From the NCBI GenBank assembly GCA_041697335.1, contig JBGUGD010000014.1, positions 32,001 through 96,000 of the forward strand: a stretch of 64,000 nucleotides of DNA. The letters run 5' to 3'. Shown here in pieces: positions 27,814 through 49,800 of this stretch. The position numbers and the translations under genes are program-made. The DNA comes from Vampirovibrionaceae bacterium NZW_1234. Its GTDB lineage: Bacteria; Cyanobacteriota; Vampirovibrionia; Vampirovibrionales; JAGQHJ01. The first letter of the stretch is position 1; each line of letters begins with the position of its first letter. The notes under the pieces were generated by a model, which was not told the origin of the DNA, ran no database searches, and worked only from the letters and a program-made list of their open reading frames with translations.

Positions 27814-28111
27814 TTTCGAGACCTCGCTTTCTCCAGTAGCCACAATCATCTATTTTTAGAATATCAGGTTTTTCCAAGAGGGCAATGTACAGCCCGCACC
27901 TAAGCCTCTGATAGACAACAGCGTTCCCCCCGACCACGGTTGCTTCAACACTAAGACCCGCAAACCGCCCTTCCAATGCGGCTTTTTACATTCACATCAT
28001 GACCCTGGAACACAGGTCCATGGAAACAAAACTTAATATAGTAGCAACGGATTTTCTTGAGGATGCTTTATACCGACACAAAGACACGAAGAGCACGGGG
28101 GAAAGTTACGG

Positions 28112-28720
28112 ATGCTACCAGGATTACAAGGCAATAACGTCGGTGGAAATCACGCCACGTTTAAAACAGGGGCCTCAAGACATGGCCAAGCCTGTTTATG
28201 CGGCGGATGCTCCAATGGCAGCCTGCAACCCCGGTTCTCCAGCAACACTCCTACAAGCAAGCCCATTGACCTACCCAGAACAAATGCAACCCTCGGGTAT
28301 GCACTCAGTGGGGGACAAAATCAGTTCCAGGCTCTGAATGACACCTTCCCCGGAGGCCAAAGAGCGACGGAGGAATTCCATCATAAAGTCCATCATGGTC
28401 TTGATGGCTACGGTGTTACCCCGGGCACGGCTGCTCTTGGCGAAACCCCAGAGAACTTGGCCCATATCGGATCTCCCGGACTGTTTGAAAGTTCGGTGCG
28501 ATTAACGGAACTCCATAAACAGGCTCGCCAGGATTACGCCAATGCCCTTGCTGCCAGCGTGTCGTCCGGCCAAATGACTCCTGATCGAGCCAAATCAGAA
28601 CTGGATCTCTTTGACAGTGAATGGGATCACACGTTCACCTTAGGCCAATATGCCCATAAAAAAGGAATTGAAGAAATTGCAGGAGCCCGATCTGATATCC
28701 ATACCTTGGCTCAAGCTTAA
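28112..28720 (+). CDS. Hypothetical protein with N-terminal HxxxCxCxxC cluster and LQPRFS leader motif
   Basis: 202-aa ORF with purine-rich SD GGGGGA. Confidence 0.6.
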   Translation: MLPGLQGNNVGGNHATFKTGASRHGQACLCGGCSNGSLQPRFSSNTPTSKPIDLPRTNATLGYALSGGQNQFQALNDTFPGGQRATEEFHHKVHHGLDGYGVTPGTAALGETPENLAHIGSPGLFESSVRLTELHKQARQDYANALAASVSSGQMTPDRAKSELDLFDSEWDHTFTLGQYAHKKGIEEIAGARSDIHTLAQA

Positions 28721-28739
28721 ACCCCGCAAACAAAAGTTT

Positions 28740-28838
28740 TCTCTGCTACATACTACCTCACCACACACATACACTTACTTTCTCCTCTGAAACAAATGAC
28801 ACTTGCGCTCACTACCCCCCCTAGAGCGCATTTTTTTT
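28740..28838 (+). ncRNA. Candidate small RNA 1 (G-poor, C-rich-loop terminator; possibly 3'UTR-derived)
   Basis: TGCGCTC-ACTACCCCCCCTA-GAGCGCA-T8; 26/31 identity to the copy at 29191. Confidence 0.6.
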
Positions 28839-28949
28839 GCGCATTTTTACCCTCCTCGAATTCAGATTTACAAAACTTAAGCAAGTAGCATCCAAAAATC
28901 TTGAGAGGGCTTTATGTAGGCACAACGAGAGATGGTCGGGCGAACACCA

Positions 28950-29022
28950 GATTTTCCACACACACTATCTCTGCTACCTACACTCACTCTTCTGAATGTT
29001 ACCCCCTCGCCCCCCCTCATTC
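28950..29022 (+). ncRNA. Candidate small RNA 2 (related to copy 1)
   Basis: Shares CCACACACA, TCTCTGCTAC and TACACT.ACT with copy 1; GAATG/CATTC stem with C-rich loop; no clear U-tract. Confidence 0.4.
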
Positions 29023-29151
29023 GTATACGCAGGAGGATGTGAACCGAGATGATGACTTCATTGGATACGCTTTACAGCTATGTTTTTGACAATCTGCTAA
29101 TCCGTGCCGGTCTTGCGACTGTTGATTCCATTGCAAACCTGCCGGATCCGC

Positions 29152-29179
29152 TTATTTTGGCCCCACAACAGGCCGATAG
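29152..29179 (+). promoter_or_regulatory. Sigma-28-like promoter for sRNA 3
   Basis: TTAT-N16-GCCGATAG; the TTATTTT -35 region matches the promoter at 9920-9946. Confidence 0.55.
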
Positions 29180-29185
29180 GATTTC

Positions 29186-29253
29186 TTAGCTCTCCTCCTA
29201 AAACTAATGACGCTGGCGCTCTCTCCCCCTATACTGAGCGCCTTTTTCTTTTT
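29186..29253 (+). ncRNA. Candidate small RNA 3 (~65 nt, anti-SD motif)
   Basis: Promoter upstream; TCTCCTCCT; GGCGCTC-TCTCCCCCTATACT-GAGCGCC followed by a T run. Confidence 0.65.
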
Positions 29254-48141: not shown

Positions 48142-49800
48142 TTAGTGAGGCAGGGGTAGGGTTACCGTAAAGAGATACCCCAAGCCAGGGGTTGAGTCGA
48201 ATGTCAGATTGCCACCATGAAGTTCAATCAGTTGTTTTGCAAGAGCGACACCATGCCCCAAACCGTGACTCATCTGTGCTGACGTGTGGAAATCGAAGTC
48301 TTCAGACAAGGCATCCGGTATGTGTTCCGACACACGCTGGCCCGAATCCTTGATCGTCAAGACTAGAGCACTCTGCTGAGACTGCTTTTGAATAGTCACT
48401 TCCACACCCCCATGCGTTGGGCTTAATTGAATCCCATGTTTAATGAGTTGATACAGGATTTGACGCAACCGGATTGGATCAGCCAAGACCCTTGTTAAAT
48501 TGGGCTGAACATCAAACGTCAAGTTTATCTCACGGCTCTGAGCCAATTCTCTGAAAATTTTTTCAAGATTTGTAACCAGCGCCGGCAATTCAATCCACTC
48601 GTAAAACAAGGTCATCTCGCCAGATTCCAGCTTGGCCATATCCATAGTCGTATTCATCATGTCCAGTAAATAGCGACTACTGAGTCTCATATTTTCGACA
48701 AAGCGTGTCACTTTCGGGTCAGCATGCTGATGTAAAACGCTGTCCAGCAGGTCTGCATAACCAATTATCGCCGTCAAAGGGGTTCGACACTGATGTGACA
48801 GCATGGCCAAAAATTGTGTCTGACGCTGCTTTAACACCCAGAGTTCATGGCATTTTTCTTCCAACATCAGGCCCAATTGACTGAAGTCGGCCAGGCAAGA
48901 GACCTGGGATACCATGACTTTGAGCAATTCCAAAGCCTCTGGCGACCATGAAACATCTTCTCCCCGGCACCAAACCTGAAACAGACCCAGACATTGTCCC
49001 TGAACTCGAACCGGAACATTAATGACTTGAGTAACCTTCGCGTCCAACCACTCTGCTCGATCCACAGGGTGTCCCGCGGCCAAAAGGTCTTTGGCATGCC
49101 AGACTCCCCATTGGGATAGTACAGCAGTATGGCGCATCAGAGGCAAATTACCGGATTGAACAGATTCCTGGGTATTCGAAGATGCCGACGGAAAAAACGT
49201 ATAGGTTTCATTCGCTTCACCATCACAGGCGTACCACCAATAATGCACGGATTCGGTCTGACTCATCACGCGAATCTGGTTCAAAATCTGTTCGATCAGT
49301 TGCTGTGCGTCAGACCGCTTTGGTTTATCCTGAAAAAAATGACACACGTTAGCAAAAACCGCATTTTTTGCGTATGTTGCCATCGGCAGTGTCGTCAGAC
49401 AGGCGTCCTGATGCTCTGCCTCAGGTACCCACAGGATAATCTGGGGCGTCCCCCCGGCATGTTTATAGCAGACACATCGAACGTTTTGGGTATACCCTGC
49501 GGGGTGAAGGAACTGTAGTTCAATGTGGGCCAAATCGGCCTCTCCAATCTCATCGGCCAGGTAAGTATAAAAACTACCGATCTGTGCCAGCTCCGAAGCC
49601 AGTCGTGATTTTATGCTCTGTCCGAGAATCGGCTGCCCAGCAATGCCCAAAAAAGAGAGTGCGGCGGGGTTTAAATAAACAACCCGATCATGTTGATCGA
49701 TGCCCAACACGACATCCGATAATTGGTCCACGAGCTGCCGAAACGGATTGAATTCCTCAGGAATGGAGGAACACTGGGGTTCCTCGGAGTATGCCAACAT
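48142..49800 (-). CDS. PAS-GAF-HisKA-HATPase sensor histidine kinase with degenerate ATP-binding boxes
   Basis: PAS (VVYLNPAA), GAF (INVPVRVQGQCLG), SHQCRTPL, ADPIRLRQIL, LIELHGG. Confidence 0.85.
   Translation of the reverse strand: MLAYSEEPQCSSIPEEFNPFRQLVDQLSDVVLGIDQHDRVVYLNPAALSFLGIAGQPILGQSIKSRLASELAQIGSFYTYLADEIGEADLAHIELQFLHPAGYTQNVRCVCYKHAGGTPQIILWVPEAEHQDACLTTLPMATYAKNAVFANVCHFFQDKPKRSDAQQLIEQILNQIRVMSQTESVHYWWYACDGEANETYTFFPSASSNTQESVQSGNLPLMRHTAVLSQWGVWHAKDLLAAGHPVDRAEWLDAKVTQVINVPVRVQGQCLGLFQVWCRGEDVSWSPEALELLKVMVSQVSCLADFSQLGLMLEEKCHELWVLKQRQTQFLAMLSHQCRTPLTAIIGYADLLDSVLHQHADPKVTRFVENMRLSSRYLLDMMNTTMDMAKLESGEMTLFYEWIELPALVTNLEKIFRELAQSREINLTFDVQPNLTRVLADPIRLRQILYQLIKHGIQLSPTHGGVEVTIQKQSQQSALVLTIKDSGQRVSEHIPDALSEDFDFHTSAQMSHGLGHGVALAKQLIELHGGNLTFDSTPGLGYLFTVTLPLPH

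Follow-up and report, generated by a model that had tools for sequence, protein, structure and literature searches.

The 802-bp gap at this locus, which has a Bax1-I gene and a PRK/uridine kinase-family gene as neighbours and lies within a 64,000-nucleotide stretch analysed as a whole (the window), raises the question of what its C/A/U-rich repeats are. They had been described as three sibling small RNAs, possibly related to the cyanobacterial Yfr1 and driven in one case by a sigma-28-like promoter (hereafter, the original prediction). We found that the gap holds a conserved 46-codon ORF. The same promoter-like module stands before this ORF (ORF B) and before a 202-aa orphan (ORF A), and an RNA element follows each of them, copy 1 trailing ORF A and copy 3 trailing ORF B; the locus thus consists of two tandem promoter-ORF-terminator units with the RNA element at each 3′ end. 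The units are a duplication, promoter and terminator both being paralogous. The same two units occur in the related genomes G003 and G004, and a single unit occurs on the related metagenome contig L035; G000 denotes the window's own 3.7-Mb genome. The features of the locus are the following.

28020–28084, + strand: promoter-like module A (TTACA/AAACA..TAGCA..CTTGAG..GCTTTAT), a member of a genome-wide motif; 24 bits, at a site outside the final training set.
28112–28720, + strand: host ORF A, which encodes a 202-aa orphan protein with a Cys cluster at its N-terminus; its positional homologues are 16–21% identical, and the ORF is lost in G003.
28737–28780, + strand: upstream stretch of the 3′ UTR, poor in G and rich in C, A and U, with a Yfr1-like run; it is unaltered in a close relative, but other genera have not kept it.
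28775–28803, + strand: core of element copy 1, mostly single-stranded, with the anti-Shine-Dalgarno (anti-SD) heptamer UCUCCUC (28781–28787) and the A-rich AC-N-AAUGAC tract; predicted RNase E site before 28779.
28804–28838, + strand: terminator hairpin of copy 1, with 7 bp, a C7 loop and a U8 tract.
28864–28928, + strand: promoter-like module B, a paralogue of module A; 18 bits.
28950–29022, + strand: middle copy (copy 2), which forms the leader of ORF B and is rich in C and A; perhaps a decayed element, without a terminator.
29049–29189, + strand: host ORF B, 46 aa, with AGGAGG at 29031–29036; its N-terminal 20 residues are conserved in four members, and it has no Pfam match.
29186–29214, + strand: core of element copy 3, directly behind the stop codon of ORF B, with the anti-SD at 29191–29197.
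29215–29253, + strand: terminator hairpin of copy 3, with 7 bp, a C5 loop and a U-tract.

Two of the three predicted paralogues were borne out: TCTCCTC at 28781 and 29191, identity at 26 of 31 positions, C-rich loops, GAGCGC, U-tracts, and a basal stem pair that is U-A in one copy and G-C in the other. The alignment score of copies 1 and 3 (61) exceeded those of all 2000 dinucleotide shuffles (mean 16), and an nhmmer search over the 3.7-Mb genome returned each copy as the best non-self match of the other. The hairpin folds of the corresponding short RNAs had z-scores of -5.2 and -4.4. Altogether, seven copies were identified in four related genomes or contigs (G000, G003, G004 and L035). They are composed of UCUCCUC, which is invariant in all seven, the A-rich AC-N-AAUGAC tract, which is present in six (AAUGAC is lost in G003 copy 1), and a 7-bp covarying terminator, whose loop varies from 4 to 25 nt and contains a run of C in only five. 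In an alignment of eight sequences fitted to a covariance model (the seven copies and a divergent element, L086, described below), both partners have changed in four of the seven stem pairs, and 98% of the cells pair. No Rfam family matched the locus at E ≤ 10 or exceeded its gathering threshold in the window; a weak match of Hrs12 to one G004 copy (27 bits against a cut-off of 70; E 0.74) was discarded. These results establish a real, conserved 3′-terminal RNA element, unmatched in Rfam and present in two copies at the locus.

An AUG lies 8–9 nt behind the anti-SD heptamer in six of the seven copies (28796–28798 and 29207–29209 in the window), which is the geometry of a ribosome-binding site with its SD complemented. 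We rejected a peptide starting at this AUG, as its length ranges from 18 to more than 58 aa, its frame is shifted in G004 and it is absent from G003 copy 1. A ribosome-binding site on the minus strand was also rejected, since a well-spaced ATG follows it in only one copy, as judged by eye.

The middle copy did not stand as a third sibling. The three short motifs attributed to it are present, but their order differs from that in copy 1, and it has no stable hairpin (z 0.17), U-tract or AAUGAC; the covariance model did not match it at E ≤ 5. Its similarity to copy 1 gave P values of 0.13–0.17 with tight bounds and 0.001–0.009 with wider bounds. In the close relative used for comparison (run X11), it has at least three substitutions, a deletion and an alignment break. 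Because the similarity is weakly significant with the wider bounds, the middle copy may be a decayed element that lacks its terminator; at most it is this, or else the two share a C/U-rich composition.

We then asked how the element is distributed. A covariance model built from five copies gave 44.6 and 46.5 bits for the two G004 copies that had been kept out of it. Over 151 class genomes, with 36 candidates per genome scored under stricter filters, the model (R1) reached no more than 33.4 bits anywhere outside G000, as compared with 44.6–79.3 bits for true copies. When 14 weak loci were rescanned, the 10 alignments listed proved to be generic terminators, coding sequence or partial matches, with the exception of L086. 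Pattern searches gave 17 matches in 401 class genomes and 6 in 401 phylum genomes, and the outside matches viewed (five of five from the phylum, four of 14 from the class) had no terminator. One of the five metagenome matches was real (L035). Of six genome-scan stretches, three were viewed and judged to be chance matches, and the other three (L039, L041 and L042) were left out of the copy count because they may duplicate known loci. The distribution of the element is narrow: among the genomes searched, we did not find the family outside the window's own family, nor, within it, in G001 (87% complete) or G002 (56% complete).

L086 (1501–1600, minus strand; G004:C34) is a free-standing, G-poor element with a CUGAAAC-N-AAUG tract, a hairpin whose loop carries ACUCCUCA, and U8. 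It scored 26 bits, with the tract and hairpin kept and no UCUCCUC in front of the tract; no homologue was found in the other four genomes. We regard it as a candidate divergent member without the promoter class. A weaker, partial match to the AAUGAC tract (14.6 bits) occurs in the window at 49320–49369 (+ strand), with a small hairpin and a U-tract and no anti-SD.

Conservation is concentrated in the element. The 29-nt core before the hairpin has an identity of 0.76–0.81 among the seven copies, as compared with 0.36–0.42 for the flanks (before the core and after the U-tract) and 62–69% for the promoter. The element is also kept where its host ORF has been lost: in unit A of G003, some 220 nt separate the promoter from the element, and this interval contains no ORF of 60 aa. 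As judged from the aligned copies, selection on the 29 nt before the hairpin is stronger than on the host ORFs; this sample comprises four independent genomes or contigs and one close relative (X11). The element provides a clean case of a 3′ tail that outlives its host gene, and as such it bears on the origin of sRNA genes from mRNA ends.

Host A proteins have a protein identity of 16–21%, and a homologue search with ORF A returned only ORF A itself. The sole part common to the host A proteins (window 28112–28720; L003 340–810; L035 2549–2887, minus strand) is a cluster of Cys residues at the N-terminus and, behind it, an RF(G/S) motif, which also occurs in many orphan N-termini of G000. ORF B, whose stop lies one base upstream of the copy 3 anti-SD, has homologues at the same place in G003 and G004, and a fourth was found in the protein library (E 7e-6). 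Differences within this family fall mostly at third codon positions (13–17, against 3–4 at second positions). The conserved N-terminal 20 residues of this four-member family look amphipathic. A type I toxin-antitoxin reading of ORF B seems unlikely, as its hydrophobic stretch is broken by charged residues and no antisense partner was seen.

The sigma-28-like promoter assigned to copy 3 was not supported. A good -10 sequence, GCCGATAG, is present at 29172–29179, 12 nt before copy 3, but TATT stands at -35; moreover, the site lies inside the last codons of ORF B and is not found at that place in G003 or G004. The elements are not free-standing RNA genes but the 3′ ends of longer units under another promoter class. 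A weight matrix iterated from the six locus promoters, and then trained only on other sites, scored all seven unit promoters at 12.8–31.3 bits. In G000 it gave 142 matches above 15 bits, compared with 3 on the reversed sequence, and only 7 of the 185 matches above 10 bits lay inside genes. A gene start occurs within 160 nt of 91 sites, mostly that of a low-complexity, orphan-looking ORF. Strong intergenic occurrences of the genome-wide motif, TTACA..T[AG][GT]CA[CT]..TGTTTTTATA, number about 140 and precede orphan genes of low complexity, and the leaders behind it are enriched in GAGTTAGGAG and AGAGAG words. We infer that the motif is a sigma promoter; a reading of the module as a peptide was rejected owing to an in-frame stop in one G004 copy. 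The element is thereby tied to a large, unexplained promoter class before orphan genes.

G000 has 14 sigma region-4 matches over the cut-off, some of them in response regulators. Feedback of the element on a sigma-factor mRNA was considered and rejected: when the leaders of 16 genes encoding a sigma region-4-like domain were compared, none was conspicuous, the best, that of a response-regulator-like gene, being in the top 2%. Elsewhere in G000 (C7, near 126051, minus strand), a sigma-28-like promoter is followed by a C-rich CCUCCAACACCAC stretch.

What, then, might the conserved tails do? We give about even chances to the reading, based on comparative evidence, that the tails of the two units belong to a family of 3′UTR-derived anti-SD small RNAs acting in trans. 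Such a family would be new, but its class of mechanism is known. The conserved element of about 60–70 nt would be released from the mRNA 3′ end as a small RNA, probably by RNase E, and its unpaired UCUCCUC would pair with the Shine-Dalgarno regions of other mRNAs and so block their translation. The likeliest targets would be strong-SD mRNAs under the same promoter class, the host mRNAs included. In the weakest step of this scheme, the tails would form a feedback arm of the promoter-class regulon. We infer that the tails are transcribed, processed and active in trans from several features. The anti-SD is unpaired at 0.73–0.94 in the predicted short RNAs, and the words found most often ahead of start codons in G000 include AAGGAG, AGGAGA and GAGGAG, which are complementary to UCUCCUC. 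The RNase E-type cleavage word RN|WUU (as given in PMC5222698) occurs within 14 nt upstream of the anti-SD in all seven copies (background 0.21, a contrast inflated by the U-rich context) and exactly 2 nt upstream of it in three, and an RNase E/G family gene is present in five of five family genomes. Six of the seven copies lie between the stop codon of ORF A or ORF B and the terminator, and the seventh lies behind a lost ORF. Conservation beyond the terminator is presented in PMC9438474 as a hallmark of 3′UTR-derived sRNAs, and the element has such a conserved seed beyond its terminator, conserved above the level of its host gene.

Target prediction in G000, with crude gene calls, singled out no specific mRNA. 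The leaders of the regulon paired better than SD-matched controls, by 1.2 kcal/mol for copy 1 and 1.9 kcal/mol for copy 3. The advantage appears largely compositional, since copy 1 with shuffled flanks reproduced it; real copy 3 exceeded 12 of 12 shuffles. The Hfq domain of Pfam (PF17209) was found in none of the five family genomes, in a search whose control missed Synechococcus as well.

A further-reaching version, which we consider quite doubtful, is that the RNA tail rather than the protein is the conserved product, serving as a broad anti-SD brake on an orphan regulon of about 140 genes, with the ORFs as interchangeable or disposable passengers. If true, this brake would limit translation of the whole regulon, which is possibly linked to predation or development. 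Our literature searches on the lineage found no regulatory RNA of this group, and the element offers a short, testable RNA candidate from the non-photosynthetic sister lineage of the cyanobacteria.

The tail could instead act in cis. According to this explanation, the anti-SD folds back on the ribosome-binding site of its own message, as in icaR (PMC3868564 describes this precedent), so that the finished message would be silenced or degraded and translation confined to nascent transcripts. In whole-transcript folds, the anti-SD indeed often pairs with the SD of its host instead of remaining free: partition-function calculations gave this pairing a weight of 0.70–0.80, for at least one assumed start, in units A and B of the window, unit A of G003 and unit A of L035. 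Against its own leader, copy 1 makes 10 uninterrupted pairs, which places this pairing 65th of 3086; copy 3 comes 210th with its own leader, and the crossed pairs come 605th and 731st. However, the cis pairing is weak or absent in unit B of G003 and in both units of G004, its registers differ, and any anti-SD will pair with any SD. Moreover, the element is kept in unit A of G003 without a sizeable ORF, and over the seven units the element does not covary with the leaders. The core is nearly fixed while the host leaders differ, and permutation showed no preference for the cognate leader (P 0.17 and 0.73); this speaks for action in trans rather than for the fold-back, which we regard as unlikely.

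The AC-N-AAUGAC tract has no evident part in the predicted duplexes. The best 10 duplexes among approximately 3,090 crude gene calls of G000 were no better than those obtained after shuffling the core's 3′ half (copy 1, W1, -23.4 against -22.2 to -24.4; copy 3, W3, -24.9 against -24.1 to -27.0), and G000 contains no extended complement to the element. The retention of the tract in six of seven copies, although it improves no predicted duplex, would suit a core that binds a protein or confers stability, by way of an RNA chaperone, a nuclease or a localisation factor, with the SD complementarity being incidental. L086, at 26 bits, points the same way in having tract and hairpin and not UCUCCUC. 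On the other hand, it is UCUCCUC that is invariant in all seven copies and AAUGAC that is lost in one of them, G003 copy 1, and no candidate protein has emerged. We think a protein-binding or stability element improbable, and an anti-SD small RNA acting in trans is the reading that we prefer.

The units are clearly a duplication, which would suit an intrinsic terminator that was simply copied and does nothing more. The original prediction had named this outcome, a copied terminator with an unconserved TCTCCTC, as the finding that would speak against it; the core proved to be conserved across genera. The 29 unpaired nucleotides are as conserved as the stem, both across genera and between paralogues, while the flanks are at background. 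The CACAC segment fared worse, as the Yfr1-like run is kept only in the very close relative and not across genera. In that relative, X11, for which the comparison is of single contigs at a depth of 3–5, we counted no substitution in the 111 nt of copy 1 and the C/A-rich leader before it or in the 66 nt of copy 3, each of which has one inserted base. By comparison, the 97 nt that follow have 16 substitutions, and two pieces of ORF A, 322 nt in all, have 57 (Fisher P 2e-6, 2e-4 and 3e-12 for the contrasts). The conservation of the core before the stem, together with the X11 contrast, largely refutes the terminator-only explanation, to which we assign very little probability.

Three free-standing sibling sRNA genes, under sigma-28 control or related to Yfr1, are highly improbable: GCCGATAG before copy 3 and the Yfr1-like run before copy 1 would speak for them, but neither is conserved across genera, the middle copy fails, and the Yfr1 model of Rfam (RF01116) finds nothing in G000, G003 or G004 (E ≤ 1; cut-off 38 bits), although it passed the cut-off in only one of 14 control genomes.

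Yfr1 itself is described in PMC2190773 as an 11-nt motif between two stem-loops, encoded mostly between guaB and trxA. The element resembles it in phylum, in approximate size and in having an unpaired, CUCCUC-containing stretch before a GC-rich terminator. The ultraconserved ACUCCUCACAC undecamer reported there for the unpaired region is, however, absent from all copies of the element (G000 has it once, on a different contig). Whereas the two stem-loops of Yfr1 enclose an unpaired stretch of 16–20 nt in that description, the only stable conserved stem of the element is its terminator, and Bax1-I and PRK/uridine kinase-family genes take the place of guaB and trxA. A separate locus in the non-photosynthetic relatives (L113 1501–1548, + strand; G001:C139) gave a sub-threshold match to the Yfr1 model (22 bits), with a 5′ hairpin and then CCUCCUCACAC, and is possibly a Yfr1-like RNA.

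With LhrC1-5 of Listeria monocytogenes, as portrayed in PMC4132741, the element shares a multicopy, G-poor make-up and a CU-rich single strand and C-rich terminator loop that can cover an SD. In that account, each LhrC RNA comes from a gene of its own and has a 5′ stem-loop and three redundant UCCC sites, whereas the element has neither the 5′ stem nor loop A, and the C-rich loop is missing in two of seven copies. The icaR 3′UTR of Staphylococcus aureus also carries a pyrimidine motif complementary to an SD, that of the same mRNA (in the account of PMC3868564); the motif of the element, in contrast, occurs behind host genes that are unrelated to one another, and it shows no covariation with their leaders.

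A further comparison is with the 3′UTR-derived sRNAs CpxQ, OppZ and the cyanobacterial ApcZ, as far as PMC9438474 presents them. The element has no known sequence relation to these RNAs, and Hfq was not detected in its genomes; its hosts are orphan and dispensable, and two different host genes carry paralogous tails. What it has in common with them is a stretch of about 60 nt from stop codon to intrinsic terminator, conserved far above the 3′ region of the host gene, an RNase E-type word at its 5′ border, and possible feedback on the parent regulon.
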